A DNA stretch of 64,000 nt. Source: a virus (lineage: Duplodnaviria; Caudoviricetes). The stretch covers positions 32,001 to 96,000 of the IMG/VR virus record IMGVR_UViG_3300029288_004137. One strand, 5' to 3'. Positions 24,562-56,554 of this stretch are shown here, piece after piece. Each line of letters opens with the position of its first letter. The first letter of the stretch is position 1. The notes below the pieces were generated by a model. It saw only the letters and a list, made by a program, of their open reading frames with translations. It made no database searches and was not told where the DNA came from. Both the position numbers and the translations under genes were made by a program.

Positions 24562-25698
24562 TTATTGTGCTTTGAAGTTAAAGACTGGTTTCATAATGAA
24601 TTCGATATCTACAGTATCTTTGATAGAATCAATTATTCTTTGAGAATCTTTATATGCCATAGGGCTTTCATCGAGTGTATCTTTTGATATACACTTTGAC
24701 CATACATTTTCCATTGTCTTTTTAAAGGTATCCAAAGACAATGTTTTTTTGGCTTTGGATCTTGCGAGGATTCTTCCTGCTCCATGAGGAGCTGAATAAT
24801 TCCATTCTATATTTTCTTTTCCTTTTCCAATAATAATCCCATCTCTCATATTCAATGGGATTATTAAGTTTTGTCCTTTATAAGCAGATATGGCACCTTT
24901 CCTGATAATTGCTATATCTTTTTGGAATTCGATATAATTGTGGATAGATTCTATTTTAGTTCTAATTCCTTTTTGATTAAAGAAATCAATTAAAATCTTT
25001 TCTGCAATCAGTGCTCTATTAAGTTTAGCATATGCTTGAGCAATGATCATATCATCGAAGTATGCTTGTGCTTCTTTTCCTGTTAAATACTCAAGATTTG
25101 AAACACAAGGATAATTTTTAATTTCTTTGGCAATTGCTTGATGGAAATTAGCAATTCTAAGTCCAAAGTTTCTTGATCCGGTATGGATTGTAAGCCACAA
25201 TCTATCTTGATCATCTTTATCTATTTCAATAAAATGATTTCCACCTCCAAGTGTCCCCAAAGAGCACAAAACATTTTCAATGTTTTGTTCGGTACGACAA
25301 GAAATCTTTTTGATATCAGAATCAAGATAAAAATCTAATACTTCTTTAGGATTAGAATGTTTATTGAATCCTGAAGGAACGTTTTCAATAAGAAAATTAT
25401 GAAAACGCTCAAAATCTATTTCTTTCTTATCATTAATTAAATAAGAAGATACACCGCAACCAATGTCAACCCCCACAATATTCGGGATTATAATTGGTTT
25501 GAGTATGTTAATTATTGAAGTAAACCCAATACAAGATCCACTTCCTGAATGACAATCAGGCATGATTGAAATCTTGCTATCCTTAAAAACAGGATGATTT
25601 ATAAATGTTGATATTTGTTTTGAAGTTTCTTCTTCAAGATCTGAATAATCTTCTAACATAACATCTGCATTTGTATATTTCCCTTCAATTTTTAACAT
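24562..25698 (-). CDS. rtcB: RtcB family RNA ligase
   Basis: MPDCH, VGVDIGCG, LGTLGGGNHF, HTGSR, HNY, SAPHGAGR, DESPMAYK. Confidence 0.95.
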   Translation of the reverse strand: MLKIEGKYTNADVMLEDYSDLEEETSKQISTFINHPVFKDSKISIMPDCHSGSGSCIGFTSIINILKPIIIPNIVGVDIGCGVSSYLINDKKEIDFERFHNFLIENVPSGFNKHSNPKEVLDFYLDSDIKKISCRTEQNIENVLCSLGTLGGGNHFIEIDKDDQDRLWLTIHTGSRNFGLRIANFHQAIAKEIKNYPCVSNLEYLTGKEAQAYFDDMIIAQAYAKLNRALIAEKILIDFFNQKGIRTKIESIHNYIEFQKDIAIIRKGAISAYKGQNLIIPLNMRDGIIIGKGKENIEWNYSAPHGAGRILARSKAKKTLSLDTFKKTMENVWSKCISKDTLDESPMAYKDSQRIIDSIKDTVDIEFIMKPVFNFKAQ

Positions 25699-31866: not shown

Positions 31867-32021
31867 TTCATGGTTCAATCATACCATACTTTTTTTCAAA
31901 TGTCAAGAACAAAATTCTACGGAAGATTCGTGCTTCACATGGAAATTAACTACTATGCCATTCTTAGCATGTTCAATTTCCATGTTAAAAAAATGAGGAC
32001 AAATTCCAGTTTTGTTTCCGA

Positions 32022-40145: not shown

Positions 40146-41378
40146 TTAACGTGGTGGTACATCATCGCTTAGCATCATACTGCCTATCGCACCACCTATA
40201 CATTTAATAGTATAACTGTCCAAATCTTTTTCAGCATTTCCACGAATATCATACTCTCTGAAAATATATTTATTCAACTTCCTGTTTTCACATGGTTTTT
40301 CATTTAATATTCTTTCATATTTTGGTTCTATCAAATTCCATATTAACTTTGAAAAATTGTGTTTATCATAAATATTAAACAATATTCCTTTGTATTTTGA
40401 TTTAACAGCATACAAAGCAAATTCTTTTTTATCATTTATATCAGAAACTTTTTGAATGATATCATTGAATTCTTTTTTAACTTCACAAAGAATATCATTA
40501 TATCTTGCTATCAAATCATCTTTCGTTTTTTCAAACCAAGTATATGATTCTTCTGGGAGATTCTTCTTTAATTCTTCCAAAGAAGAATTGTTTCTGAGAC
40601 ATTCCCAGATAACTTTATTTGAAAAATTATAAGCAATTCGATGAAGTCTTACATACTCATCGAATTTTAATTTTATTCGATAGTTATCTTCAAATTTAAG
40701 AACAAATCCCTCTTTGTTTTTTGTTTCAAATTTCTTCAAATCTTTTATATCATTAACTAATTCTGAAAAATCAAAACGATTAACAACTGAAAAGATGCAA
40801 GGAACCTCTTTAAAGAGTCCTGAATAAGATTCTTCTTTTCCTGTTTTAACATCGATTATAGAAAGAAGAATTAAATCTTCTATATCCCCATAATTTACAA
40901 CAATTCTATTTGTAGGATGAATTAATTCAAAACAATATGTTTTTCCTTCTTTAATAAAATCAAACGTTTCATTTATTTTTCTTTCAAAGATTTCTTTTGC
41001 AAGTAAAGCTTGCGAAGAAAAGAATGTTCCTCTTGTAGAAATAATGTTCTTTCCATTGTATTTAAAGATTTCAATAAAAGAACCGTCAATCTTTTCATAT
41101 ACTTCGTATTTCATGTGAGAATACTTATCGATAGATTCCTTTGATAATTCTTCATAATTAAAGAATTTCTTAAAAGGACGAGAAACAATATTCCCTTTGT
41201 TATCAATTACTAATCCTCGACAAGACTCAGTATATAAATCCCAAGATCTTGAATATGAAGCTTCATTTGTATAATTCAATATCAAAAGATCTTCAGTATC
41301 GTGCTTAACAATTGATATAAGTTTATCTTTATTATATTGTTCTATTAAATCTAAATCTATCTTATCTAAAAAAGACAT
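40146..41378 (-). CDS. T4 Rnl1-like RNA ligase with a foreign C-terminal extension
   Basis: CRGL, RPFKKFFN, motif I EKIDGS, FEL...NRIVV.Y, EGFV, IKLK. Confidence 0.88.
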   Translation of the reverse strand: MSFLDKIDLDLIEQYNKDKLISIVKHDTEDLLILNYTNEASYSRSWDLYTESCRGLVIDNKGNIVSRPFKKFFNYEELSKESIDKYSHMKYEVYEKIDGSFIEIFKYNGKNIISTRGTFFSSQALLAKEIFERKINETFDFIKEGKTYCFELIHPTNRIVVNYGDIEDLILLSIIDVKTGKEESYSGLFKEVPCIFSVVNRFDFSELVNDIKDLKKFETKNKEGFVLKFEDNYRIKLKFDEYVRLHRIAYNFSNKVIWECLRNNSSLEELKKNLPEESYTWFEKTKDDLIARYNDILCEVKKEFNDIIQKVSDINDKKEFALYAVKSKYKGILFNIYDKHNFSKLIWNLIEPKYERILNEKPCENRKLNKYIFREYDIRGNAEKDLDSYTIKCIGGAIGSMMLSDDVPPR

Positions 41379-42587: not shown

Positions 42588-43595
42588 ATGAAATTTTCAC
42601 ATTTTTCTGATATTGAAAACTCTTATAACCTTAAATTTGTTGAAAAAATTGATAAGTCTGGAGTATGGTGCGTTACTGAAAAGATTCACGGAGCTAATGC
42701 TTCTCTTTGGTATTCCTCTGAGAATGATGAATTCCGTGTAGGAAAAAGATCATCTTTTATTGATGAAAGTAATTTCTTTGGTATCAATAAGTTTTCTAAT
42801 ACTTCTCTTAAAGAGATTACTATTAATCTTTTTAACCATATTAAAAACAATTTTAATTCTGAGATTAAAGATCTTGTTATCTATGGAGAATGGTTCGGCG
42901 GATATTATAATTGTGATGGAGTATCTGTAAAAGGATCAAGAGTACAAACGGGCGTATCTTATTCACCTAATAACCATTTTTATGCTTTCTATATGAAAAT
43001 TAATGATGTTCCTGTTTCAAGAAAAGATTTCTCTGAAATCTTTAAGGATTTTGATAATAAGAATAATATATTCTTTGATTCTAAAATCCTTTTTAAAGGG
43101 ACATTTAATGAGTGCATGGAATATCCTAATGATCAGAATAGTTTTATTCCTGATATGTTTAATTTGCCTAAACTACCAAAGAATATAATGGAAGGTGTGG
43201 TTATAGAACCATATGATACGATTAAATTTACTCCCAATAATGAAAGAGTTGTTCTAAAGAATAAGAATAATCTTTTTAATGAGAAGAAAAATAGGACAGG
43301 TAAAACTTATAAAGATACTATTCTCAGTGAAAATGCAATTAGTTATTTAGAGAATATTGATTGTTATATAACAGAACAAAGAGTTGAAAATCTTTATTCA
43401 AAATTGGGTGAAGAAATGTGCTTTAAGAATTTTTCTAGTATTCTTAAAGAGTATGTCGAAGATGTTTTTAAAGATTCTTCGAAAGAAATAAATGATAATG
43501 ATTTTGAACTTAGTAGTCTTGATCAAGAAAATGTTCTTCATGAAGTAAAAAATAAATCATCAAATCTTATTAGAAATTTCTTAAAAACGATTTAA
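42588..43595 (+). CDS. Rnl2-family RNA ligase
   Basis: EKIHGAN, YGEWFGG, VQTGVSYSP, EGVVI, LKNKN. Confidence 0.88.
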   Translation: MKFSHFSDIENSYNLKFVEKIDKSGVWCVTEKIHGANASLWYSSENDEFRVGKRSSFIDESNFFGINKFSNTSLKEITINLFNHIKNNFNSEIKDLVIYGEWFGGYYNCDGVSVKGSRVQTGVSYSPNNHFYAFYMKINDVPVSRKDFSEIFKDFDNKNNIFFDSKILFKGTFNECMEYPNDQNSFIPDMFNLPKLPKNIMEGVVIEPYDTIKFTPNNERVVLKNKNNLFNEKKNRTGKTYKDTILSENAISYLENIDCYITEQRVENLYSKLGEEMCFKNFSSILKEYVEDVFKDSSKEINDNDFELSSLDQENVLHEVKNKSSNLIRNFLKTI

Positions 43596-43686: not shown

Positions 43687-44397
43687 ATGGATCTCTATGA
43701 AACAGTTAGAATTGGCAATTTTCAACAAGTTAAATATTTTATTGAAAATAGCACTGATAATCATGAGATAAATGTAAAGGTATTATTACATTTAGCAACA
43801 GTAAATGGCCATCTTGATATCGTCAAATATCTTATTGAACGATATCAAGATATTGATATTTATGCTAATAATGATATTGCTTTACATCTTGCAGCACAAA
43901 ATAACCATTTTGATATTATTAAATATTTCGTTGAAAAAAAAGTAAATGCTAATACTTTAAATGGTTCTATTTTAGCATATGCAGTACAATATAATTGTAT
44001 GCATATGATCATATATTTAATTGAAAAAGGTGCTAATATTCATGCTTTAAATGAAATTGCTTTAAAAGCAGCAGTAACATTTAATCATTTTGATATTGTT
44101 AAGTATCTTATTGAACATGGTGCTGATATTCATATTGAAAATGATTATGTTTTAAGACTTGCCGTAAGAAAAGGTTTGATAGATATTGTTAAATACCTCA
44201 TTAAATGTGGTGCAGATATACGTGCTGATAATAATCGTGCTTTACGATGGGGACTTAAATACCAAATAAAGTATAATAACAAATTTAATATTGTCAAATA
44301 TTTAATTTCTTGTTATAATAAAGAAGAATTAAAAGAATTGTTTTTTAAATTTGATGATCTTTATATAAAGTATTTAATTTTGGAGCAAAGTATATGA
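43687..44397 (+). CDS. Ankyrin-repeat protein
   Basis: Ankyrin repeats plus LILE tail. Confidence 0.9.
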   Translation: MDLYETVRIGNFQQVKYFIENSTDNHEINVKVLLHLATVNGHLDIVKYLIERYQDIDIYANNDIALHLAAQNNHFDIIKYFVEKKVNANTLNGSILAYAVQYNCMHMIIYLIEKGANIHALNEIALKAAVTFNHFDIVKYLIEHGADIHIENDYVLRLAVRKGLIDIVKYLIKCGADIRADNNRALRWGLKYQIKYNNKFNIVKYLISCYNKEELKELFFKFDDLYIKYLILEQSI

Positions 44398-44633
44398 ATA
44401 TCTTTGATGCAATAGAAGAAAACAATATTCAGTCTGTTAAAGAATGTATTAAAAGTAGTGCTGATATTCATGCTCATAATGCTTTAAGATGGGCAATAGA
44501 ATTAAATCGTTTTGAAATTATTAAGTATTTAATTTCTTTATATACCTTTTTAGAGTTGAAAATATTGTTTTTTAAAACTAAGGATCTTTATATAAAGTAT
44601 CTAATTTTAGAGCAAGTATATGAATCTTCTTGA
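44394..44633 (+). CDS. Short ankyrin-repeat protein
   Basis: One repeat plus tail. Confidence 0.8.
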   Translation: MNIFDAIEENNIQSVKECIKSSADIHAHNALRWAIELNRFEIIKYLISLYTFLELKILFFKTKDLYIKYLILEQVYESS

Positions 44634-44647
44634 TGAAAGGAAAAATA

Positions 44648-45232
44648 ATGTTTGAAAATGATGAAGATTATGATGCTTTAAAAGAATTCTCATATTATCT
44701 TTATGAAAATAGAGAAAATTGTTCTATTCTTTTTAACATAATTAATACTTATAATGAAAGTCTTTTTAAGAAAAGCAAGAACTTTGAAAACTTTTCAAAG
44801 TCATCATTTATTTGTAAATCTATCAAAACGCTTTTTCCTAAACTTGATTATGTTGATAAAAATGGACTAGATTTCATTTATGACAATAGAATTTTAATTG
44901 AACTAAAAACAAGAAAAGAGATGTTTCAAAAAAAGAAAACAAATCCCATTATTATAAAGAATCTAATTAAAAATCTAAATGAAACAAAAACATTTTCTGT
45001 TCTTTGGATGATTCAAACAGATAAACCGTATAAAATGGGATTAACTACATACACATCTGCAAAAAAATTTAAAAAGTTCTGTTATTCTCGGACTGAGTGT
45101 CAAATTCCTTTTGAATATATCCAATTTATTGAAATTCAAAACGATATTAAACATCTTGAAATTAATATTCAAAAAGAACAAGATGAATTTGAAAACAATT
45201 TAATCAATAAACTGATAAATAGGTTGAAATGA
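44648..45232 (+). CDS. Possible PD-(D/E)xK nuclease
   Basis: GLDF...IELK; overlaps the methyltransferase start. Confidence 0.45.
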   Translation: MFENDEDYDALKEFSYYLYENRENCSILFNIINTYNESLFKKSKNFENFSKSSFICKSIKTLFPKLDYVDKNGLDFIYDNRILIELKTRKEMFQKKKTNPIIIKNLIKNLNETKTFSVLWMIQTDKPYKMGLTTYTSAKKFKKFCYSRTECQIPFEYIQFIEIQNDIKHLEINIQKEQDEFENNLINKLINRLK

Positions 45233-46107
45233 ATAAACCAATATGGGCCTTGACTCCTCTTCGATATATAGGAGGAAAAAGTAAGCTTATAAAAAATATG
45301 TATCAATATTTTCCAAAAGATTTTTCTGAATTCAGAGAACCTTTTGTTGGAGGTGGATCTATATTTCTATATTTAAAACAATTATTTCCTGACAGAAAAT
45401 ATTGGATAAACGATATAAATCAAAATCTCTTTTCTTTTTGGATTATTCTTCAAAATTATGATTCAATGCTAAAACTACAAAAAGATCTTTTAAAAATAAA
45501 AGAAGATCTCATGCAAAAGTCTATTGAAGAAAGAAAAGAATTAAATATAAAAATGAAAGATACTTTATATGGTATAGATTCTGAGAATACAAAAAAATTA
45601 GTTCTTTCATATGAAAGAGCAATTGCTTATTATTTCTGCAATAAAACATCTTTCTCAGGATTAGAACAAGGTACTTATTCAGATCAAGCTTTTTATAAGA
45701 ACTTTACAGTATCAAATATAAATAAATTTAATACATATAATAAACTATTAAAAAATGTAGAAATAACAAATATAGATTATAGTCAATTACTTAATGATTC
45801 AATTAAAGATTATGATGAAAATGTTTTCTTTTATTTTGATCCGCCTTATGAATTAAATAAGAAATCATCAAATACTCTTTATGGTAAGGATGGAATACTT
45901 CATAAGTCTTTTGATCATCAAAGATTCTTTTCACTTATTAAAACAATTAATAAAGGAAAATTCTGTATATCATATAACAGTGATTCTTATATAAAAGAAA
46001 GATATAAAGATTATAATCAAATTGAATTAGATTTTCAATATGTTTCTAATTGTGGAAATAAGGGAAAATCAAAAAAAACTAAAGAATTGTTGATCTTTAA
46101 TTATTAA
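45229..46107 (+). CDS. Dam-like N6-adenine DNA methyltransferase
   Basis: YIGGK, EPFVGGGS, NDIN, DPPY, ELLIFNY. Confidence 0.92.
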   Translation: MNKPIWALTPLRYIGGKSKLIKNMYQYFPKDFSEFREPFVGGGSIFLYLKQLFPDRKYWINDINQNLFSFWIILQNYDSMLKLQKDLLKIKEDLMQKSIEERKELNIKMKDTLYGIDSENTKKLVLSYERAIAYYFCNKTSFSGLEQGTYSDQAFYKNFTVSNINKFNTYNKLLKNVEITNIDYSQLLNDSIKDYDENVFFYFDPPYELNKKSSNTLYGKDGILHKSFDHQRFFSLIKTINKGKFCISYNSDSYIKERYKDYNQIELDFQYVSNCGNKGKSKKTKELLIFNY

Positions 46108-46170
46108 AGAAAAAATTAAACTTGACTTTTAAAATTAAATATGATATTCTTTTATTAAAGAAGAAATTAA

Positions 46171-49100
46171 ATGATATTAACTGGCAAAATGTATAAATAT
46201 TTCTACAATAAAAATTACTATTATCTTTATCTTGAAATAGATAGAAATTGGTTTATAAACAACATTCTACCTAATTTACCACAATGTTATAAATGTTTTA
46301 AATGTAATACTGAAAAAGATTGTCTTTTTTTATATAATTGCAAACATAAAATTTTTTGTTGTGTTCCTTCTTATCAAGAAGAATTTAAATTAATAGAAAA
46401 ATTGGATAACATTAAATGATATTAACTGGAAAAATTTATACTTATAAAAATGAAAACAAAACCAATCTTTATCTTGAAATAAATAAAAATTGGTTTTTAA
46501 AAAACCTATTAAAAGATCTTTTTTTTAAATGTCGTGACTGCATAAAAAAGAATAAAGATAATTGTCTTTTTTTGTATTTTTGTAAAAGTAAAAGATTTGA
46601 TTGTTATCCTAAAAATCCAAAATTTAAATTAATAGAAAATAATATTGTTGGATAACATTTAAATGATATTAACTGGAAAAATGTATACTTATAAACCAAA
46701 AATATATATTTATAAATCAAATGAAAATGAAAATAATGTTTATTTTCATCTTGAAATAGATAAAAATTGGTTTATAACCAATATTTTGTCTAATATACCA
46801 CAATGTTCTAATTGTAATAATATAAATAAAAATAGTTGTCTTTTTTTATATTCTTGTAAATTTAAAAATTTTTTTTGTGTTCCTCTTGTTTCTCTTTCTC
46901 AAGAAAATTTTAAATTAATAAAAAAATTAGGTAGTAATTAAATGATATTAACTGGCAGAATGTATATATACCATTCAAATCTTTATAATTATTACTCTTC
47001 TTTTCCTACTGATGATATGTATGTTTCTCTTTATCTTGAAATAGATAAAAATTGGTTTATAAAAAATATATTGAATTTGAATTATGTTCGTACTCATTTT
47101 GTGTGTAGTGACTGTACTACAAAAAGAAACAAAAGTAACTGCTTTTTTTTATATAGAATTAAATCTAAAAAATTTGTTTGTTATCCTGAAGATACAAAAA
47201 TCAAATTTGAATTAATGAAAAATACTATTTTGGATAACATTTAAATGATATTAACTGGTAAAATGTATACTTTTCAAGATAACTATCTTTATCTTGAAAT
47301 AGATAAAAATTGGTTTATCAAAAACGTATTAAAAGATCTTTATCTGTGTGGTGACTGCATAAAAAAGAATAAAGATAATTGTCTTTTTTTATATTCTTGT
47401 AGATTTAAATATTTTCATTGTACTCAACTTTCCTTCTGCTATGAAATAAAATTAATAGAAAAATTGGATAACATTAAATGATATTAACTGGAAAAATGTA
47501 TGTTTATAAACAAAGTGAAAATAATGTTTATTTTCATCTTGAAATAGATAAAAATTGGTTTATAACCAATATTTTGTCTAATATACCACAATGTTTTAAT
47601 TGTAATAATGTAAATAAAAACAGTTGTCTTTTTTTATATTCTTGCTTATATAAAGATTTTCATTGTACTAACGTTCCTTCTATTATGGAATATAAATTAA
47701 TAGAAAAATTGGATAACACTAAATGATATTAACTGGAAAAATGTATGCTGCTGAGTATCCAATTTTATTCTCTCTTATTAAAGATGTGCATTTATGTATA
47801 TGCCTTGAAATAGATACAGATTGGTTTAGAAAAAATTTATTAAATAAAAATCCAGCATGTCAATTTAATAAATGTGAACATTGTAGTATTTATAATTTAG
47901 GCAAAAAATGTTTGTTTCTTTATAATATACAACATAAAAGATTTTATTGGTATTATCCTAAACATTTTAATTGCTTTGAGAAATATTATTATAATAGTGA
48001 AGACATAAAATCTAATTTATCTGATCTTCTTCTTCTTCCTACTGTTTATATAAAGGAAATTAAATAATGATATTAACTGGCAAAATGTATAAAAAATGTT
48101 TCTACGATAATACAAACCATATTCCTCTTTATTTTGAAATAGATAAAGATTGGTTTTATAAAAATGCATTACCAAATATTATTGCATGTTATAATTGCGA
48201 TGAAGATTGCAATAAATATAAAGAAAAAGAAAAAGATTGTCTTTTTTTGTATTCTTTTGATTCTAAACGTTTTAATTGTGTTCACTATCCTTCTACTCTG
48301 CAATTTAAATTAATAGAAAAATTGGATAACATTTAAATGATATTAACTGGTAAAATGTACGCTTATAAACAAAGTAAAAATTATGTTTATTTTTGTCTTG
48401 AAATAGATAAAAATTGGTTTATTACAAATATTTTACCTGATTTACCACGTCATTGTTTTGATTGTTTTAATACAGATAAAAATAATTGTCTTTTTTTGTA
48501 TTTTTGTAGTTATAAAAAATTTAATTGTTTTCAAAAAAAAAGTAATTGTTTTAAAGAAATGGTTTGTTCTAAAAAGAGTAAAAATTAAATGGTATTAACT
48601 GGCAAAATATATACTTATAAACCAAGTGAAAATGATGTTTATTTCCATCTTGAAATAGATAAAAACTGGTTTATAAATAACATTTTGCCTAATTTATTAC
48701 TATGCTATAAATGTAATACTGAAAATAGTTGTCTTTTTTTATATAATTGTGAATTTAAAAGTTTTTATTGTGTTCCTCTTGTTTCTCAAGAAAAATTTAA
48801 ATTAATAGAAAATAATATTGTTGGATAACATTTAAATGATATTAACTGGCAAAATATACACTTATAAAAATGATAAAAATAATGTTTATTTCCATCTTGA
48901 AATAGATAAAAACTGGTTTATAAATAACATTTTGTCTAATATACCACAATGTTTTGATTGCAATAATGTAAATAAAAATAGTTGTCTTTTTTTATATTCT
49001 TGCTTATATAAAGAATTTCATTGTACTCACTTTCCTTCTACTATGGAATATAAATTAATAGAAAAATTGGATAACATTAAATGATATTAACTGGAAAAAT

Positions 49101-50114
49101 TTATACTTATAAAAATGAAAACAAAACCAATCTTTATCTTGAAATAGATAAAAATTGGTTTATAAATAATATTTTGCCTAATTTATTACTATGCTATAAA
49201 TGTAATACTGAAAATAATTGTCTTTTTTTATATAATTGCATGTTTAAAATTTTTTGTTGTGTTCCTCTTGTTTCTCAAGAAGAATTTAAATTAATAGAAA
49301 ACATATAATATTGGATAAAATCTAATGTCTATTATAGATAAAATACATAAAAAAATAATGATAAAATTTAAAAAAGGAAATCTATTTTTTGATAACTTTT
49401 TTAAAAGATTCTTTATAGTAGTAGATATCTGTGATAAAAAACACAAATTATCTTATCGACATTGTAAAAAATGTAATAAAAACTATGCTCTTCCAAATGC
49501 TAAATGTTATTTATCGTATTATTTTAATAAAAATGATTCATATTTTCGTTGTAATACTGAACTCTATCTTTTAAAAACTTTTAAAAAAAATAAATTAAAA
49601 AATGAAAACAATTCTCACAGGTAACATATATAAAGATTTTTTTGTTGTTCCACATCTTTATCTTGAAATAAATAAAAACTGGTTTATAAAAAATAAGTTA
49701 AATTTGGATAGGATTGGTATAGAAAATATATTTGATGAATATTGCGAAAATTGTAATGCCACTTTTAAAGGTGATTGTTTATTTTTATATGGTATTAAAT
49801 CTAAAACATTCTTTTGTGATAAAAAATCATTTTATGATAAAATTGGAGTATAAAATTAAATGATTCTTACAGGTAAAATGTATAAAAGCGAATCAAAATA
49901 TTTTGATTCATCAATATCAAAAATTTATCTTGAAATAGATAAAAATTGGTTTATGGATAATATTATAATTAAATATGAATATGCTACGTGTTTTAATTGT
50001 GTTCGACTTAATAATCAATGCTTATTTCTATATGATTTACAAGACAAGAAATTTTTATGTGAAAAACCACAACTTCAATATTTTTATAATGAAATAATAC
50101 AAAAAAATGATTAA
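46171..50114 (+). repeat. Tandem array of 14 Cys-rich MILTGK-family CDS (46171, 46416, 46663, 46942, 47245, 47478, 47723, 48067, 48337, 48589, 48836, 49081, 49602, 49860)
   Basis: MILTGK.Y...LEIDKNWF...CxxC...CLFLY...F.C in each. Confidence 0.9.
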
Positions 50115-51568
50115 TAAAAACAATTATAAATTAGAATATTATGAAAATCTTGGATTTGTTATAAATATAACAGATCAATATAAAGATGTTCCTACAAAAG
50201 AAATAAAAAAAATATGTGAAAATAGATTTTTTAATATGAAGCATCCAGATTATGGATCAATCTACCATTGCAGAGAATGTTATTTAGGAAATGGATTCTT
50301 ACTTGCCTATAGTTTTTTACTTGATAAAATAATATGTTTATGTGTTTTGATAAAACTGATGAAAGACTAGATATAAATGAATAACAATAAATTAGAATAT
50401 CATGAAAATCTTGGATTTTTCATAGATATAACAGATCAGTATAAAAATCTTCCAACAGAAAAAATAAAACAAATATGTGAAAATATGTATTGTACTGAAA
50501 ATACTCTCTATAAAAAATTTTCTGCCCCATATAAAAACAATATGCTTAACTATTTTTTTATATGTCAGCAAAATCAATGTTCTTTGGGAGATAAACATAA
50601 CAGACTTATTTATAGTTTTGATTTTAACAAAATCGTATGTATGCATTTACATTTAAAAACTTCTAAAATTACTTATATAAAATGAATAACAATAAATTAG
50701 AATATCACAAAAAATTTGGATTTTTTATAGATATAACAAATCAGTATAAAAATCTTCCAATAAAAAAAATAAAAAAAATATGTGAAAAAGAGTATTTTTC
50801 TGATTATAAACCCTGTATAACAGATTTTTCTGATTCACACGATATATTTAACTATTTTTTTGTTTGTATATGTCAAGAACAATGTTCCTTGGGAGATAAA
50901 TATAACAGACTTATTTATAGTTTTAATTTTAACAAAATCATATGTATACGTTTTGATAAAACTGACAAAGAATCAGATATAAATGAATAACAATAAATTA
51001 GAATATTATGAAAATCTTGGATTTGTTATAGATATAACAGATCAATATAAAGATCTTTCATTAAAAAAAATAAAAAGAATATGTGATAATCAGTATTATA
51101 CTAACTCAATCAGTTTATCAGGTTTTTTCTTTAAATGTTGTGATACATATTGTTCTTTGGATAATGGACATAATAAACTTGTTTATAGTTTTGATTTTGG
51201 CAAAATCATATGTGTAAATTTATTTGTTTTGCATTCAGAAATTTTTGGATTTGATAAATATGAAAAAAATTAACAATAAATTAGAATATTATAATCATCT
51301 AGGTTTTTTTATAGATATAACAGATCAATATAAAAATCTTCCAATAGAAGAATTAAACAAAATATGTAAAAAACAATATTTACACGATATTATGATACGT
51401 ACATATGATTCTAAATATACTTTTTCTTTTTGCCATTGCATAGCATGTTGTTTAGTTTCTAAGAAATATAAACTTGGTTATAGTTTTACTCTTAAAGATT
51501 TTATATGCCTTACATTAGAAGAATCTTTAAATACAAATATTAAAAAAGGAAACAAGAATGAATTTTAA
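50107..51568 (+). repeat. Tandem array of 5 KLEY..NLGF.IDITDQYK-family CDS (50107, 50377, 50682, 50983, 51260)
   Basis: Conserved N-terminal motif plus Cys residues. Confidence 0.88.
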
Positions 51569-53090
51569 TTTTAAACTTAAAAAAGGAGAATTGTATTTCG
51601 ATCATAATGTTATGGAATTCTGTATCATTCTTGATGTTTGTACTAAAAATGAACATTCAACTTCTTATTTATATTGCAAACATTGTGGTTATAATTTGTA
51701 CCCATGTAAAAATGAATTTTTTTATTTAGTATATTATTTTAGAAAAAAAATTCATTTTATTCACACTATACATGTCTTTCTAAGGAATATATTATAAATA
51801 ATGAACTTTTTCAAAATAAGGGTAAAAATCAATGAAAACAATAAAATTTAAAAAAGGTTCTTTACATTTTGATAAATTTTTTAAACATTTTTTTCTAATA
51901 ATAGATATTTGTACTCCTGATCATCCATTAACAAATAAATATCAATATTGTAAAAATTGTGATACTACTTATTTTCCTTCTTTTAAAGGGAAAAAATATT
52001 TAAGATATACTTTTATTAGAAAAAATTATGGTTGTGTTTGTGGTGGCGACAATGAATCTTAAAAAAGGAAATCTATATAAAGATGATTTAGGTTTTTTTA
52101 TAATAGTAGATGTTTGTACTAAAAATAAACGATTAAATTATAAACACTGTAAACATTGTGGTAATAATGGTATATATCCTAAACCAGCTTTTTTTAAAGA
52201 AAATGAAACAGTTTATTTAATTTATTCATTTTATAAAGATATATCATATTTTTGGTGTGATTCAGAACAAAATTTATTAACATTGGATCTTATAACAAAT
52301 GAAAACAATGAATCTTAAAAAAGGAGAATTGTATTTAGATGATTTAGGTTTTTTTATAATGGTAGATATTTGTACTAAAAATAAACCATTATATGAATTA
52401 TATAAACATTTACACTGTAAATATTGTTATCGAAGAAAAGATGATTCTTTTTATAAAGATATAACAATGTATTTGATATATTCTTTTAAAAAAAATATGT
52501 TAAATTCTCATTATTCTTGTATCACAAAAGGAGCAACAATTAATGTCAAAAACAATAGAAACAATAAATCTTAAAAAAGGAAATCTATATAAAGACGGTT
52601 TAGGTTTTTTTATAATAGTAGATATTTGTACTAAAGACAAACCATTAGATGAATCATATAAATATTTACACTGTAAAACCTGTTATCGAAAAAATAATTC
52701 TTTTTATGAAAATGTAACAATGTATTTGATATATTCTTTTAAGGAAAATATGTTAAATACTCATTATTCTTGTTCCTCAGAAGAATCAATAATAATGTCA
52801 TCTCTCTTTTATAAGAGAGTCTCTTTTATAAGAAAAAAATGAAAAATGAATTAGAATTAGGATTAAAATATAATCTAGCAGATGGATTTTATTTAATATT
52901 AAATAATTGTAGTTTTAATTTAAAAGAGAGACAATACAATATGAACAAATACAAATTTTGCAAGCATAAATGTAGATTTAACAAACTTTATAAAGAATAT
53001 CCTACTTGTTTTGAAGGTGGTGAATTTAATTTAATTTATGTTTTCAATGATAAACAATTATATTGTGTAAAAAGAGATATTTATTTTTAA
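51558..53090 (+). repeat. Tandem array of LKKG.LY.D...IVDIC-family CDS (51558, 51832, 52052, 52299, 52543, divergent 52839; also 49325)
   Basis: Conserved motif plus HCKxC. Confidence 0.85.
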
Positions 53091-53854
53091 TTATAAATTC
53101 TTGAAAACAGATTCTTTGAAGATTTTAATAATTTTTTATTTGATATTTTTAAATGTAATAACTTTAAAATACTTTCATAATTCAAAGTTAATTTGATATA
53201 ATCACCAACATTTTTTGTTGTTCTATACGAACGATTTAAATGATCTGAAGATGATAAACCTTTCTTTGTTGTTTTTAAAGCACAATCATCTTCTTCTGGA
53301 ATAGTTCTTGAACCAAATGGATCATCAAAAAAACCATCAAAATTATGAGGTTTCTTATCATTTATATCATCAATCTTAGGTGGAAAAGATTCCCAAGAAG
53401 AATCTTTATTTATTGATAACCAAACATTTTCAGCTTCTTCTGTAGTGCTTTCTCTATCAGCACATATTCCTGCTTCTTTATTACCATCGTTTTGACATAT
53501 CCATGCTGATGCTAATCCATAAAGAAGTTTTCCAATTCCTTGCCCTTTATATTGATCTCTCAAGAAAGACATATGAATTTGATAAGCACCATAACAAAGT
53601 CCGCCTGTATTTAATTTCTTGCTTTCTTGACATTTTTGCATAGAAATAGCACCAATAATCGCCTTAACCAATATTTCTTCATTTAAATCTTTTGAATAGT
53701 TTTTTAATATTTTATTATCAAAAAGAATAAGACGAATCATATGAAAATTATTACTCATTTCTTGTGCTACTGCCAAAGAAATATTAAGAAAATTTTCAGT
53801 ATCAATTGTACTTTCTTTTAAAAATTCTTTCCAATTATTAACAAATGTATTCAT
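53087..53854 (-). CDS. GNAT-like family paralog 1
   Basis: YKGQGIGKLLYGLA, GICADR, AENVW. Confidence 0.65.
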   Translation of the reverse strand: MNTFVNNWKEFLKESTIDTENFLNISLAVAQEMSNNFHMIRLILFDNKILKNYSKDLNEEILVKAIIGAISMQKCQESKKLNTGGLCYGAYQIHMSFLRDQYKGQGIGKLLYGLASAWICQNDGNKEAGICADRESTTEEAENVWLSINKDSSWESFPPKIDDINDKKPHNFDGFFDDPFGSRTIPEEDDCALKTTKKGLSSSDHLNRSYRTTKNVGDYIKLTLNYESILKLLHLKISNKKLLKSSKNLFSRIYN

Positions 53855-53857
53855 GAT

Positions 53858-54775
53858 CTATTGATTATTTCTTCCATAAAGTCTAGTGAAAAAAGAATTA
53901 AAGATTCTTTCAAAGAATTTTGATATAAATGGTAAATCATTTGTCATCATAAAAAATTTACCTACATGATTATGATTTTCTATAACTTTATCAAAATTCT
54001 TTGTATATTCATTATAATTTTTTACAAACTCATATGTATTAAAAGAACGGTTTAAATGATCACTATTATCTAAAGATAATTTTGTTTTCTTTAAACGGCA
54101 ATTATCTTCTTTTGGAGTTGTTCTTTCGTTTTTTATATTATCAAAAGTACCATCAAAATAATCTTTCTTTTTGTTATTTGGTTGTTCTTCTTTATCTGTT
54201 TTTTCTTGATTTGGTTCTTCATCTGGTATTTGATTTTCCCAAGAAGGATTATTATTTATCGATAACCAAACTCTTTCTGCTGCTGGTGATGTCGTTGCTC
54301 TATCAGCGCATATTCCAACATTAGGATTATTATCATTCATATAAGCATGTGATGCTGCTAAACCATATAATAGTTTTCCATACCCTTTGCCTTGATATTC
54401 TTCACTTACTGCTGACATTTTAACTTCATAAGAACCAAAACATTCTCCATTCCCATTCTCTTCTGTTTTAATTATAGAAATTACACCAACAATACAATCA
54501 CGAAATCCAGATTTAAATGAATTAATAAAATTATTTTCCTTCCCATCATCATAAAATAATTGTTTTATTTCTAAATTTGAATTGTTTAATTCTTTCTTAT
54601 AGTGAGAACTTAAATAAGTTAAAGTTTCACTTAGTTTTGTTAAGTCTAAAAGAAATATATTATCTCCATCTCCATTAAATCCTTCAATAACAAACACACC
54701 AAAAAACAATGAATTAACGTTTTTTTCTTCTTTTAATAATGTTTTTCTTTTAAAATTTATCCATTTTTTATTCAT
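53858..54775 (-). CDS. GNAT-like family paralog 2
   Basis: YQGKGYGKLLYGLA. Confidence 0.65.
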   Translation of the reverse strand: MNKKWINFKRKTLLKEEKNVNSLFFGVFVIEGFNGDGDNIFLLDLTKLSETLTYLSSHYKKELNNSNLEIKQLFYDDGKENNFINSFKSGFRDCIVGVISIIKTEENGNGECFGSYEVKMSAVSEEYQGKGYGKLLYGLAASHAYMNDNNPNVGICADRATTSPAAERVWLSINNNPSWENQIPDEEPNQEKTDKEEQPNNKKKDYFDGTFDNIKNERTTPKEDNCRLKKTKLSLDNSDHLNRSFNTYEFVKNYNEYTKNFDKVIENHNHVGKFFMMTNDLPFISKFFERIFNSFFTRLYGRNNQ

Positions 54776-55824
54776 GATGTGTGATGAATACCTCGAAAAA
54801 ATGTTTGAAGTTTATTAGTAATTAAATCTTGATCTCCTCCGAAAATAACATCAATAAAAGGTTTAATTCTTTTTAAATTAATTATAACCTCTCTGAATTC
54901 ATCTGTTTTATTAGATGAAGCAACAATATTTAAATGTTTATCATCATCAAAATATTTACTTTCCTTTCTTTTGCAATCATCATCATATGGATCTGTTTTA
55001 GGATCATAAACATCATCAAATTCTCCGATATAAGGTTCTATTTCAGAAATTTGATTAGACCAATTCCCATCTTCTTTTTCTGTTTCATTTTTAATACTTT
55101 TCCACACTCTTTCTGCTGCTGCTGACACACTACGCCTATCACAAGTAATACCTTGATTTGAAGATATTGAAGCCATTGCATAAAGAAATTTTCCATATCC
55201 TTTACCTTGATATTTTTCATCTATCGCTGAATATGCTACTTCACTTGCATCATAACAATCACCATCACTTCTAGGTTCAATATAATTTATAAATCCTATT
55301 AAAAAATTTTCAATTTCTGTTATATGGTATAATTCATAATTTAAATCTCTAATTTGTTTTTTATTAACAAACCATTCTTTTTCTTCATCATCTTCTTCTT
55401 CATCATCTTCATCATCTTCATCGTATTCTTCATCTTCCATTTCAGTGCCATTTACGTATAAATTATAGAAGTCTCCTTCATTTCCATTTAATATAGCATC
55501 CATCCATTCCATTACTTCTTCATTTGTCACTTCATCTATCATTTCTTCTATATGCTTTTCAGAATCAGAATGATGAAATGAAAAAGAAAATTGATTTTTT
55601 GGATCATATAATGCTATTTTTTTATTTCTGTTTCTTGCTGCAATATATTTTTTATATGTTTGAATAATCTTTTCTTCAAATGTCTTTATATTTATCAATA
55701 ATACAAAAACACCATCTGAATAATGATTAAATATATATAATCCTAAATCTTTTTTTGATATTGATTCTGAAGATCTTTCTTCATTTAATTTAAATTTATT
55801 CCATTGTTCATTCTTAATCATCAT
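54772..55824 (-). CDS. GNAT-like family paralog 3 (acidic insert)
   Basis: YQGKGYGKFLY. Confidence 0.65.
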   Translation of the reverse strand: MMIKNEQWNKFKLNEERSSESISKKDLGLYIFNHYSDGVFVLLINIKTFEEKIIQTYKKYIAARNRNKKIALYDPKNQFSFSFHHSDSEKHIEEMIDEVTNEEVMEWMDAILNGNEGDFYNLYVNGTEMEDEEYDEDDEDDEEEDDEEKEWFVNKKQIRDLNYELYHITEIENFLIGFINYIEPRSDGDCYDASEVAYSAIDEKYQGKGYGKFLYAMASISSNQGITCDRRSVSAAAERVWKSIKNETEKEDGNWSNQISEIEPYIGEFDDVYDPKTDPYDDDCKRKESKYFDDDKHLNIVASSNKTDEFREVIINLKRIKPFIDVIFGGDQDLITNKLQTFFRGIHHTS

Positions 55825-56554
55825 AATATATATCCCAAAAGAAATTATCAATCATAGTTATTAATCCTTTTTTTATTGAATCTTTTATTCCAAGTTTAAC
55901 ATAATTGCTTCTTAATTCATTAAATTCATTAACAAATTTATCTGAGGAGTATACTTGATTCAAATGTTCTGGGTTTAATTTATCTGAATAAAGTCTACTA
56001 TATTTTTTTATTTTACAATCATCTTTTTCGGGTCTAGTTTTAGGAGCATTTATATCATCAAACTTTCCGATATAAAACCCTTTTTTGGGTATTACAGGTT
56101 CCCAATCTTCGTTATGATCAATACTATCCCATACTCTTTCAGCTTTTTCCGATGTAGTAGATCTATCCGCCGTAATTCCTGTAGCACATTTACTTATACT
56201 TATATATGCTGCTAACAATCCATATATTAATTTTCCATATCCTTTACCTTGATATTTTTCATCTACCGCTGAATTTGATACTTCCATACTATCAAAACAT
56301 CTTCCATCTTCATAAGCAGTAGTTTTAGAAGCAATAATCATTCCAATTATAAAATCCACATGTTTTTCTTCATCAAAATCATTATCAGTAAAATTTTGTG
56401 CTGCTTTTATAAATTTTTTTAATTTTATAGTATTTAATAAAGATATTGTTACTTCTCCATCATTATCTTTATAAAAATATAAACACAAATTGTTTAAATT
56501 ACCAAAAGATTCATTTATAACAAATTTATTCCAACATTTTAAAAACCTTGTCAT
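55814..56554 (-). CDS. GNAT-like family paralog 4
   Basis: YQGKGYGKLIYG. Confidence 0.65.
   Translation of the reverse strand: MTRFLKCWNKFVINESFGNLNNLCLYFYKDNDGEVTISLLNTIKLKKFIKAAQNFTDNDFDEEKHVDFIIGMIIASKTTAYEDGRCFDSMEVSNSAVDEKYQGKGYGKLIYGLLAAYISISKCATGITADRSTTSEKAERVWDSIDHNEDWEPVIPKKGFYIGKFDDINAPKTRPEKDDCKIKKYSRLYSDKLNPEHLNQVYSSDKFVNEFNELRSNYVKLGIKDSIKKGLITMIDNFFWDIYYDD

Follow-up and report, generated by a model that had tools for sequence, protein, structure and literature searches.

The MGF110 multigene family of African swine fever virus comprises small Cys-rich proteins that enter the secretory pathway, and the 'genomic accordion' of poxvirus K3L follows the same logic as the amplification of tifA in phage T4. 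The tifA gene itself is a small toxin-inhibitor gene, which counters host defence and is amplified in tandem by recombination (Srikant, Guegler & Laub 2022, PMC9391042). Within the hyperplastic regions of T4-type genomes, modular shuffling has been described for PeSL (promoter-early/stem-loop) cassettes (Arbiol et al. 2010, PMC2839356), and Bacillus phage G carries a lineage-specific expansion of zinc ribbons, with about 35 copies, for which a part as specific factors or in DNA binding has been conjectured (Iyer et al. 2021, PMC7824862).

The array described here belongs to an uncultured T4-type jumbo phage with a genome of 209,974 bp (about 210 kb), and lies in a stretch of 64,000 nucleotides (positions 32,001 to 96,000 of IMG/VR record IMGVR_UViG_3300029288_004137) that we analysed as a whole, refer to as the window and number from its first letter. 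An initial annotation had described fourteen paralogues of 75-114 amino acids at positions 46171-50114; all 14 ORFs (family A) were indeed found intact, head to tail on the plus strand, and no copy lies outside the array anywhere in the genome. As limits of family A these coordinates hold, but not as limits of the array, since the block runs on to 53090 through five tandem family B genes (50107..51568, plus strand; 87-102 aa; motif N-K-L-E-Y ... G-F-F-I-D-I-T ... C ... L-I-Y-S-F ... C) and family C, which has seven genes. Six of the latter stand in tandem at 51558..53090 (plus strand; 76-99 aa; motif K-K-G-x-L-Y ... G-F-F-I-I-V-D-I-C ... CKxC ... Y-L-I-Y-S-F ... C), and the seventh, encoding 99 residues with a pI of 9.9, sits at 49325..49624 (plus strand), where it makes the only break in the family A run. 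In total, some 26 genes occupy about 3% of the genome, in a block with a GC content of 20%.

Copies of family A vary considerably in length and divergence. Copies 1 (46171..46419, 82 aa), 5 (47245..47481, 78 aa), 8 (48067..48336, 89 aa) and 9 (48337..48588, 83 aa) are joined by the divergent copies 4 (46942..47244, 100 aa, with a long insert at the hairpin tip), 13 (49602..49853, 83 aa) and 14 (49860..50114, 84 aa), and by the most divergent of all, copy 7 (47723..48067, 114 aa), in which the fourth Cys is replaced by Trp and the C-terminus is extended; the remaining six are taken up below, with the evidence for exchange. The products are of cytoplasmic type, with neither signal peptide nor hydrophobic segment (GRAVY about -0.3), and Cys makes up 6.4% of their residues against a background of 1.1%. 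Like MGF110, the array is a set of tandem, virus-specific, small Cys-rich paralogues, of a kind for which variable copy number is known and host interaction is thought likely; it differs in virus realm and host as well as in lacking secretory signals, and no sequence relationship exists between the two. The likeness to phage G is that of a jumbo phage with a large, one-lineage expansion of a very small protein with Cys ligands. The copies here are strictly tandem, mosaic and within one probable operon, and sequence similarity to the phage G zinc ribbons is lacking: a family A member gave no match by tblastn against 50,697 phage records.

The recurring junction TTGGATAACATT(T)AAATG, noted in the initial annotation, is exact at seven junctions. 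At most junctions the end of one gene overlaps or abuts the start of the next (ATGA, TAAATG), and intergenic gaps across the array range from -32 to +34 nt. The Leu codon of the conserved tail is TTG in six of seven Leu, against 16% genome-wide, and this creates the GGA of a Shine-Dalgarno-like element embedded within the conserved C-terminal codons. A phage early-type sigma70 promoter, recognised by motif match (TTGACT-N14-TGaTATTCT; 46122..46150, plus strand), heads the array and ends 20 nt before the first family A ATG. The general form of this motif, TTGAC[AT]-N14-TGnTATnnT, occurs 33 times in the 64-kb window, against 0.09 expected, and 38 times genome-wide, almost all in the accessory region at 21-79 kb; no copy, exact or with one mismatch, was found on the plus strand between 46151 and 53090. 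Matches to TATAAATA within the array were rejected as late promoters, as they sit inside coding sequence and not before starts; similarly, the invariant CTTGAAATAGAT block was tested for a conserved hairpin because it forms an ATCT-N6-AGAT palindrome, and this too was discarded, given a consensus energy of -0.71 kcal/mol and no covariation. We infer that the array is one operon of about 7 kb. Its transcription would most likely start at the promoter of 46122-46150, depend on the sigma70 RNA polymerase of the host and, by analogy with the sigma70-type early promoters of T4, fall early in infection; translation would probably be coupled, via the overlapping stop/start junctions and their GGA element.

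With small accessory genes of a T4-type phage set apart by short, conserved repeats at which homologous exchange occurs, with its plastic surroundings and a sigma70-type promoter at its head, the array has much in common with PeSL cassettes. It departs from them in that its junctions consist of a coding tail and a stop/start overlap, with neither promoter nor terminator hairpin, and in that exchange takes place between paralogues of one array rather than between unrelated modules. The hallmark of PeSL elements, a promoter plus a terminator stem-loop between shuffled genes, is absent here: a single promoter heads the array, and no terminator-like hairpin was found at its junctions.

At the protein level, the constant blocks that had been reported (M-I-L-T-G-K-x-Y, L-E-I-D-K-N-W-F and C-L-F-L-Y) are real, and variation is concentrated, as claimed, in discrete segments between them. 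Seventeen columns of family A are invariant, three of them Cys (C39, C42 and C51), and a fourth, C64, is present in 13 of the 14 copies. Mean column entropy is low over the start of strand 1 (0.28), strand 3 (0.07) and helix 1 (0.71), and high over the hairpin tip (2.13), the linker (2.18), the knuckle loop (1.91), the 3-4 turn (2.14) and the 4-5 loop (2.43); all indels of family A fall within the variable elements.

An AlphaFold2 model of copy 1 (pLDDT 84.7, pTM 0.74; lowest in the knuckle loop, at about 68) predicts the order strand-strand-helices-strand-strand-strand, and the same order of elements is seen in a model of the family C member at 49325..49624. In the structural check suggested with the initial annotation, both models resemble a small SH3/Tudor-like barrel carrying a CxxC insert, and their matches in structure searches are weak, with Z scores of about 5. 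For family A the best match is a PWWP domain (Z 5.0, rmsd 3.1, 68 residues aligned) and for family C the RNA polymerase-interacting domain of CarD (Z 5.1, rmsd 2.3, 54 aligned), each below the noise level of the tool, and Foldseek E-values are at least 0.05; the class of hit is consistent between the two families, with the UvrD Tudor and NusG/Spt5 KOW domains in the match lists of both. The RNA polymerase-interacting barrels of this type (CarD/Mfd RID, the C-terminal Tudor of UvrD/PcrA, NusG KOW) rank first or close to first among the structural neighbours of either model and are similar in size and strand order, but at Z scores of only 3.6-5.1 and 4-10% identity, and without the Cys4 insert, so that the resemblance to bacterial Tudor/KOW-type barrels is one of fold class only and not of membership.

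Family A has the four conserved Cys, CxxC included, expected of a generic Zn(Cys)4 site, and families B and C keep a CxxC-type pair together with conserved single Cys; this pattern suggests a putative structural zinc site. In the family A model, its probable ligands are the CxxC knuckle in the loop that links strand 2 to strand 3, one Cys where strand 3 begins and another where strand 4 ends. Such a scaffold, a predicted SH3-like barrel with one CxxC and two single Cys, is distinct from the two-knuckle zinc ribbon of phage G. A zinc ribbon has two Cys knuckles, on beta-hairpins, against the one CxxC per protein here; family A gave no hit to PF08792 (A2L_zn_ribbon) and a single family C member reached 16.5 bits against a cut-off of 22.9. 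For the LIM domain (PF00412), one copy scored 16.2 bits against a cut-off of 22.9, with four conserved Cys as opposed to eight zinc ligands.

Families A, B and C are orphans. When 1.84 billion representative proteins were searched with a profile, the family A copies of this genome came up and nothing else did; an index of 5.8 billion clusters returned only proteins of this genome (all in single-member clusters on look-up), and families B and C were likewise found only here. The families are absent from IMG/VR, from JGI metagenomes and from GTDB genomes, and in five relatives, at 50-55% capsid identity, neither A nor C is present. Searches of Pfam, PHROGs and NCBIfam gave sub-threshold noise only (mSLOG, LIM, A2L zinc ribbon, MutS_IV, PH_2, LapB), the PDB sequence-profile search a best E-value of 0.11 (with a sirtuin-2 zinc module at about 0.7), and the ESM Atlas scores of at most 0.82, in the noise. 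Neither homologues nor domain or structure hits assign a role to the proteins. One candidate relative in IMG/VR (L001) proved to be a chance match to EIDRNWF within a baseplate-type protein, a second locus (L010) was set aside with a Dam methylase as the sole common gene, and the GNAT-like genes, used as a search anchor, brought up no relatives. Between families, hhalign of A against B or C gives E-values of 0.016-0.045, always across the CxxC...LxY.F...C stretch, which is suggestive of B and C being sister families of A. A lineage-specific multigene family may be defined by at least three tandem paralogues in one virus lineage; with 14, 5 and 7 genes the array is such a family, and a clear, if not unprecedented, expansion.

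Family A copies are clearly recombination mosaics. Pairwise nucleotide identity spans 53-91%, with further differences by indels, and set into this divergence are exact tracts common to different copies, of 96, 80, 58 and 53 nt, so that segment 'alleles' appear in different combinations in different copies. The most striking case is copy 12 (49081..49308, 75 aa), a chimera as had been proposed: its first 66 coding nt (96 nt with the junction, an exact repeat between 46386 and 49051) are those of copy 2, after which it is 95-100% identical to copy 10 in sliding windows. Copy 2 (46416..46655, 79 aa) is in turn a mosaic with the head of 49081, a middle close to 47245 and a tail close to 48589, whilst copy 10 (48589..48828, 79 aa) resembles 48836 in its 5' and 49081 in its 3' part, its tail and 7-nt spacer matching those of 46416. 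Similarly, copy 6 (47478..47726, 82 aa), for which a dual resemblance had been noted, has 80 exact nt in common with copy 3 (46663..46941, 92 aa, with an insert at the hairpin tip) and thereafter 93-97% identity to copy 11 (48836..49084, 82 aa), to which it is 91% identical overall. Permutation of the PHI statistic gives p<=0.0005 for all 14 copies and also for 10 core copies, and the best single-breakpoint Fisher tests for four triplets give p values of 5e-11 (copy 12), 8e-8 (copy 6), 4e-7 and 1e-6, before correction for some 40-60 breakpoints each. The recombination tests that the initial annotation had called for thus give a signal far beyond chance. It had also named two outcomes that would count against its reading, a match to a housekeeping family and a want of recombination signal; neither was found, and the copies match no housekeeping or other known family.

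Since the array is known from one genome in a single metagenome assembly, and its exact repeats of 96, 80 and 58 nt could exceed the k-mer size of the assembler, the array or its mosaics might be suspected of arising from strain variants joined up in assembly, or from de Bruijn paths that switched at the exact tracts. We consider this very improbable: most copies differ by 10-45% plus indels, far above strain variation, all 26 genes have coherent reading frames and stop/start junctions, and exact tracts between diverged copies are evidence of exchange however the paths join.

A programmed mechanism of diversification, either a diversity-generating retroelement or an expression site with silent-cassette switching, is harder still to credit, although the alternation of constant and variable blocks does have a superficial likeness to template/variable repeats or donor cassettes. 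A retroelement was rejected in that no RVT_1 match to a reverse transcriptase exists in the genome, where the same search succeeded in positive control genomes, and the differences between copies include indels and are not adenine-specific. Nor does a silent-cassette locus of antigenic variation fit, all copies being served by a single promoter, full-length and intact, each with its own ATG and with either an SD-like GGA or start coupling. Lacking both a reverse transcriptase and a silent-cassette layout, the locus gives no indication of a programmed device. The description of the array as a 'recombination-diversified library' therefore stands as regards its mosaic copies; 'library' applies only loosely, in the sense of an expressed panel of paralogues, and programmed diversification does not form part of it. 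We suggest instead that unequal crossing-over between copies of the recurring junction enlarged the array, and that crossover or gene conversion, acting at the constant blocks, may continue to reshuffle it and so bring variable loops together in new ways.

Purifying selection on the constant columns is strong, with an omega of 0.025-0.028 (about 0.03) in maximum-likelihood codon models that allow for AT bias. Pooled dS (NG86) is 0.64 in constant and 0.60 in variable columns, and because the two classes are equal in this respect the blocks are not simply recent copies but owe their conservation to selection at the protein level; this supports family A as real, constrained coding genes. For the variable columns, the NG86 omega of 1.25 cannot serve as evidence of positive selection, because the class of column is defined by its own outcome, and the maximum-likelihood models give 0.30 (F3X4) to 0.70 (F1X4), so that the dN/dS check proposed earlier demonstrates no positive diversifying selection. 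By class of secondary structure, omega is 0.39 in coil and 0.42 in strand, coil being no higher.

A variable-column omega below 1 is what relaxed constraint, rather than selection for novelty, would produce, and the array could be a dosage amplification of the accordion type, in which one useful small gene was multiplied by unequal crossover, followed by drift, with redundant copies, variable segments that are merely tolerant and recombination as a passive by-product of tandem homology. T4 readily makes such amplifications (PMC9391042), and in both cases homologous recombination multiplies a small accessory gene in a plastic part of a T4-type genome; the present phage, moreover, amplifies many things (ankyrin and GNAT-like genes, 30 and five times, respectively). 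Saying this, the amplicons of tifA and K3L are of recent origin, nearly identical to one another and unstable, normally collapsing fast under the limit of capsid size, whereas the array copies are not near-identical, with fixed differences and three sub-families, and have no homology to either gene. Old and diverged as they are, with a pooled dS of about 0.6, all have kept frame, start, SD-like element and core intact, and their length-variable loops together with the three sub-families suggest that differences have been retained. We thus regard amplification and drift as an unlikely account.

Small barrels of the SH3/Tudor/PWWP/KOW/chromo-like kind frequently bind nucleic acids, and further weak matches to the models include a PWWP-ssDNA complex, the C-terminal domain of KorB and retroviral integrase C-terminal domains; with the precedent of the phage G zinc ribbons (PMC7824862), a panel of small zinc-stabilised proteins that bind DNA or RNA, either to regulate particular genes or in a structural role on DNA, might be envisaged. 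A basic pI, above 8 in nine of the 14 family A members and 9.9 in one of family C, points the same way. However, pI is neutral to acidic, at 5.7-6.7, in the other five of family A, a high K/N content is to be expected anyway in a block of 20% GC, DNA-binding domain models gave no match to the array proteins, and no repeated operator-like sites were found; such a nucleic-acid-binding role therefore seems unlikely to us. The overall spread of pI in family A, from 5.7 to 9.5, argues for varied binding partners.

The reading that we favour, and to which we give about even credence, is that duplication and gene conversion have shaped a lineage-specific panel of small binding proteins, which would be expressed early. 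Each family A product would be a cytoplasmic protein of about 9-13 kDa, with a predicted five-stranded SH3/Tudor-like beta-barrel in which core strands and Cys are held fixed by strong purifying selection, whilst sequence and length would be free to vary at the hairpin tip, in the knuckle loop and in loops 3-4 and 4-5. Their most likely role would be as early-made binders, each presenting a different surface, that bind or inhibit host targets of takeover or polymorphic defence proteins; the counter-defence or host-interaction function raised in the initial annotation would, by context and analogy alone, fit with such a panel.

More speculatively, and rather against our expectation, the array could act as a phage-encoded combinatorial repertoire of binders, in which four or five loop 'cassettes' are re-assorted upon a fixed, zinc-stabilised mini-barrel through recombination within the array. 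Were this so, a single lineage could carry and renew some two dozen specificities against polymorphic defence or takeover targets, and would parallel, in germline-encoded form and on a previously unseen scaffold, the gene families of variable receptors. Should the proteins be binders at all, nature would have supplied about 26 scaffolds of very small size (9-13 kDa), probably stabilised by metal and tolerant of loop variation, of use both as a framework in protein engineering and in looking for counter-defence activities or new targets in the host; at present, the value of the array is that of a well-defined candidate. It does document the building and reshuffling of a gene family in the plastic region of a T4-type phage, and adds a further case for huge phages growing their genomes in part via lineage-specific expansions of paralogues tied to conflict with the host.

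The setting of the array is an accessory, conflict-type region, containing a Dam methylase, ankyrins, the ligases Rnl1, Rnl2 and RtcB, 16 tRNAs and GNAT paralogues. At its 3' end, the family C block is convergent with minus-strand GNAT-like genes, which, at five copies, are amplified in this phage as are the ankyrin genes, at 30.

The array is a head-to-tail run of 14 intact open reading frames on the plus strand (46171-50114), each encoding a MILTGK four-cysteine mini-protein of 75-114 amino acids (family A), as the initial annotation had described; the family profile matches exactly these 14 places, and none elsewhere in the genome. Seventeen columns are invariant (L3, T4, G5, Y8, E22, I23, W27, F28, N31, C39, C42, C51, F53, L54, Y55, K60 and F62), C64 is present in 13 of the 14 copies, and cysteine makes up 6.4% of the proteins against a background of 1.1%; pI ranges from 5.7 to 9.5 and hydrophobic segments are absent. 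The recurring junction quoted earlier is real: GGATAACATT(T)AAATG stands at seven junctions, with TTGGATAACATT found seven times and exclusively there, and the optional T toggles between an ...I-K-stop ending with an ATGA overlap and an ...I-stop ending that abuts the next ATG.

The extent first assigned to the array holds for the 14-copy run but is otherwise too simple, as one gene of a foreign family (family C; 49325-49624, +) interrupts the run, and small cysteine-containing paralogs continue to 53090. These comprise five family B genes (50107-51568) and, with the interrupting gene, seven of family C (49325-49624 and 51558-53090). Alignment of families B and C is convincing (both have G-F-F-I-x-I-D/T, a CxxC-type pair, L-I-Y-S-F and a last cysteine), and family A matches them weakly (hhalign E = 0.016-0.045), in every case across the same CxxC...L-x-Y...F-x-C stretch. 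Together with adjacency, size and predicted fold, this weak match makes a common origin of all three families likely.

Pairwise nucleotide identity among the 14 family A copies (named here by start position) is 53-91%, with exact tracts of 96 nt (46386 = 49051, running across a junction into the head of a gene), 80 nt (46728 = 47516), 58 nt (46619 = 48792) and 53 nt (48635 = 48882). Sliding-window nearest-neighbour comparison reveals abrupt switches of partner, bearing out both of the mosaics proposed from first inspection: 49081 tracks 46416 (100%) and then 48589 (95-100%), and 47478 tracks 46663 (100%) and then 48836 (93-97%). The nearest neighbour of 46416 is 49081, then 47245, then 48589. 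Formal tests agree, with a PHI statistic below all 2000 site permutations (p<=0.0005) both for all 14 copies and for 10 core copies, and single-breakpoint Fisher tests on informative sites giving p = 5e-11, 8e-8, 4e-7 and 1e-6, values uncorrected for about 40-60 candidate breakpoints. There are a few types each of hairpin tip, pre-Cys linker, knuckle loop (the CxxC-bearing loop between strands 2 and 3), 3-4 turn, 4-5 loop and tail, which combine differently from copy to copy. Copy order and number rest on the assembly, and this is the main technical caveat; the recombination signal itself is independent of path-joining by the assembler, since exact tracts in otherwise diverged copies are evidence in themselves. 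As a reverse transcriptase is absent from the genome, the array is not a diversity-generating retroelement. It was also ruled out as a silent-cassette system, and rejected as a promoter-early/stem-loop (PeSL) shuffling array of the T4-type phages.

Pooled Nei-Gojobori estimates gave dN/dS of 0.09 (dS 0.64) for 29 low-entropy columns and 1.25 (dS 0.60) for 52 high-entropy columns; because dS is equal in both classes, it is selection on the protein, and not recent copying, that preserves the constant blocks. Because classes defined by variability are circular, and a GC content of 20% makes NG86 unreliable, the data were refitted with maximum-likelihood codon models, yielding omega of 0.025-0.028 for constant columns, 0.70 (F1X4) or 0.30 (F3X4) for variable columns and about 0.33 for the whole gene (by AlphaFold class: strand 0.42, helix 0.15, coil 0.39). 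The scaffold is therefore strongly constrained, and the variable segments are 10-25 times freer. The reading of the array as a recombination-diversified library thus survives in its recombination, but with variable columns at 0.30-0.70 the codon models lend no support to positive selection. No part of the window is richer in AT than the array (46000-52000; 19.8-20.7% GC, genome 27.7%); such a composition raises naive dN/dS estimates and may stem from weak constraint or a young origin.

One constant block differs from the rest in its codons. CTTGAAATAGAT, present in 11 copies (46231-49940), encodes L-E-I-D without any variation at synonymous sites; all 13 leucines are CTT (24% of leucine codons genome-wide) and all 14 isoleucines ATA (43% genome-wide), whereas codons differ freely between copies at other conserved Leu, Gly and Cys columns. 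An ATCT-N6-AGAT palindrome is formed by this block, which may be a hot spot of gene conversion or a site bound by a protein; an RNA hairpin is not supported (-0.71 kcal/mol, with no covariation).

An AlphaFold2 model of the first copy (46171..46419), built from an alignment of the 14 paralogs alone (pLDDT 84.7, pTM 0.74), predicts strands at residues 3-13, 16-23, 51-56, 61-66 and 72-75, and helices at 25-31 and 37-44, with the CxxC at 39-42; in a family C model (pLDDT 72) the elements follow one another in the same order. Foldseek returned no significant match for either model, and exhaustive structural alignment placed the same small-barrel class at the top for both: PWWP (Z 5.0) followed by Tudor, SH3, KOW and UvrD-Tudor domains (Z about 4) for family A, and the CarD RNA-polymerase-interacting domain (Z 5.1, rmsd 2.3 over 54 residues) followed by UvrD/PcrA Tudor, NusG KOW and chromo domains for family C. 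As Z about 5 denotes a mere common arrangement by the tool's calibration, we limit the claim to a probable SH3-like small barrel. Mean column entropy follows the predicted elements, being low at the start of strand 1 (0.28), the end of strand 2 (0.64), helix 1 (0.71) and strand 3 (0.07), and high in the hairpin tip (2.13), linker (2.18), knuckle loop (1.91), 3-4 turn (2.14) and 4-5 loop (2.43), to which length variation is confined. Strand 4 shows the K-x-F-x-C alternation expected of an inward-facing strand, and the four conserved cysteines (the CxxC pair, one opening strand 3 and one closing strand 4) fit a putative structural Zn(Cys)4 site.

Outside this genome the families were not found. 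The family A HMM, run against 1.84 billion representatives (~15 billion proteins), recovered nine of its own proteins and one spurious repeat protein; family B and C profiles recovered their own proteins and no others from a 5.8-billion-cluster index. Protein clusters holding array members have one or two members each, all from this contig. There was no match by tblastn of one family A member to 50,697 phage records, and no genuine match in pattern scans of IMG/VR, JGI metagenomes and GTDB genomes. In five large relatives (capsid identity 50-55%; two of them complete 184-kb genomes) neither A nor C was matched at E<=10, by a search that returns 14 matches in the phage's own genome. The families are therefore either recent lineage-specific inventions or diverged beyond recognition.

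A motif combining a sigma70 -35 box with an extended -10, TTGAC[AT]-N14-TGnTATnnT, occurs 33 times in the window (1324-46150) against 0.09 expected. Nearly all of its 38 sites genome-wide lie at 21-79 kb, the region of tRNA, ncRNA, ankyrin and ligase genes, with essentially none in the structural and replication part; the consensus offers a ready map of the presumed early transcription units of the phage. A copy at 46122-46150, 20 nt upstream of the first ATG, gives the array a head promoter of the class that drives the accessory region; between it and 53090 the plus strand has no further motif at 0 or 1 mismatch. The genes overlap or abut, with only two spacers above 7 nt (16 and 34 nt), and conserved TTG-GAT tail codons put a GGA 12-14 nt upstream of the next ATG, the tail leucine being TTG in 6 of 7 cases (16% of leucine codons genome-wide). 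We infer a single early-class operon of ~7 kb with coupled translation, the early timing being suggested by analogy with T4 early promoters. A T4 late-promoter-like TATAAATA (51793-51800, +) lies in the 34-nt spacer, the array's sole sizeable one, 32 nt upstream of the ATG at 51832; it may serve the final genes of family C as an additional, late start, or be a random occurrence in such AT-rich sequence.

The surroundings are accessory, conflict-type genes, among them GroEL. Genes for all three types of RNA-repair ligase, RtcB, Rnl1-like and Rnl2 (24562-25698, -; 40146-41378, -; 42588-43595, +) lie beside 16 tRNA genes (94-36104), the arsenal expected against host anticodon nucleases. Ankyrin genes (43687-44633, +) belong to a 30-member family with about 30 loci genome-wide (all-against-all BLAST); a 79-aa frame (44394-44633) duplicates the C-terminal end of the 236-aa ankyrin protein encoded before it. 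A 200-aa frame without Pfam or PHROG match (44630-45232, +) has an ATGA overlap with the start of a Dam-type (D12 class) methylase (45229-46107, +), and could be its partner, such as a nuclease or specificity factor. Convergent with the array, and overlapping its last gene by 4 nt, are four tandem paralogs of 246-359 aa (53087-56554, -) with weak GNAT acetyltransferase matches; these and a fifth (genome 143607-144500, -) have a common motif, C-A-D-R ... A-E-x-V-W, and one paralog used as query found no relative in IMG/VR.

The array is thus a constrained, orphan, tandem family with homologous exchange between its members, and its best-supported reading is a virus multigene family that grew by unequal crossover between copies of the repeated junction, with reshuffling at the constant blocks. 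Its products would be early-made, zinc-stabilised small barrels whose variable loops offer different binding surfaces. Loops that vary around a fixed core, amid conflict genes, suggest binders of host or defence proteins. Close precedents are the zinc-ribbon expansion of Bacillus phage G (~35 copies, suggested to be DNA binders or transcription factors; PMC7824862), recombinational amplification in T4 of tifA, a small ToxN inhibitor gene (PMC9391042), and repeat-mediated shuffling in T4-type hyperplastic regions (PMC2839356). The array is an orphan case of a known phenomenon, lineage-specific paralog expansion in a large phage; it provides a clean example, and a candidate panel of natural mini-binders.

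Paralog expansion is a general tendency of this genome (ankyrin x30, A x14, C x6-7, B x5, GNAT-like x5). It belongs to a tailed phage of the T4 superfamily that encodes baseplate wedge proteins, a large terminase and a major head protein (phrog_138). The capsid protein shares 37-39% identity with those of an uncultured 484-kb phage and Microcystis phage Mel-JY01, 49% with Flavobacterium phages across part of the protein, and about 29% with cyanophage gp23. CheckV rates the 209,974-bp record, of which the window covers bases 32001-96000, complete, and its first ~140 nt (genome 1-140) reappear at the end (209834-209974), so that the assembly closes on itself; this terminal repeat marks a circular or terminally redundant assembly, and IMG/VR lists the record as linear.
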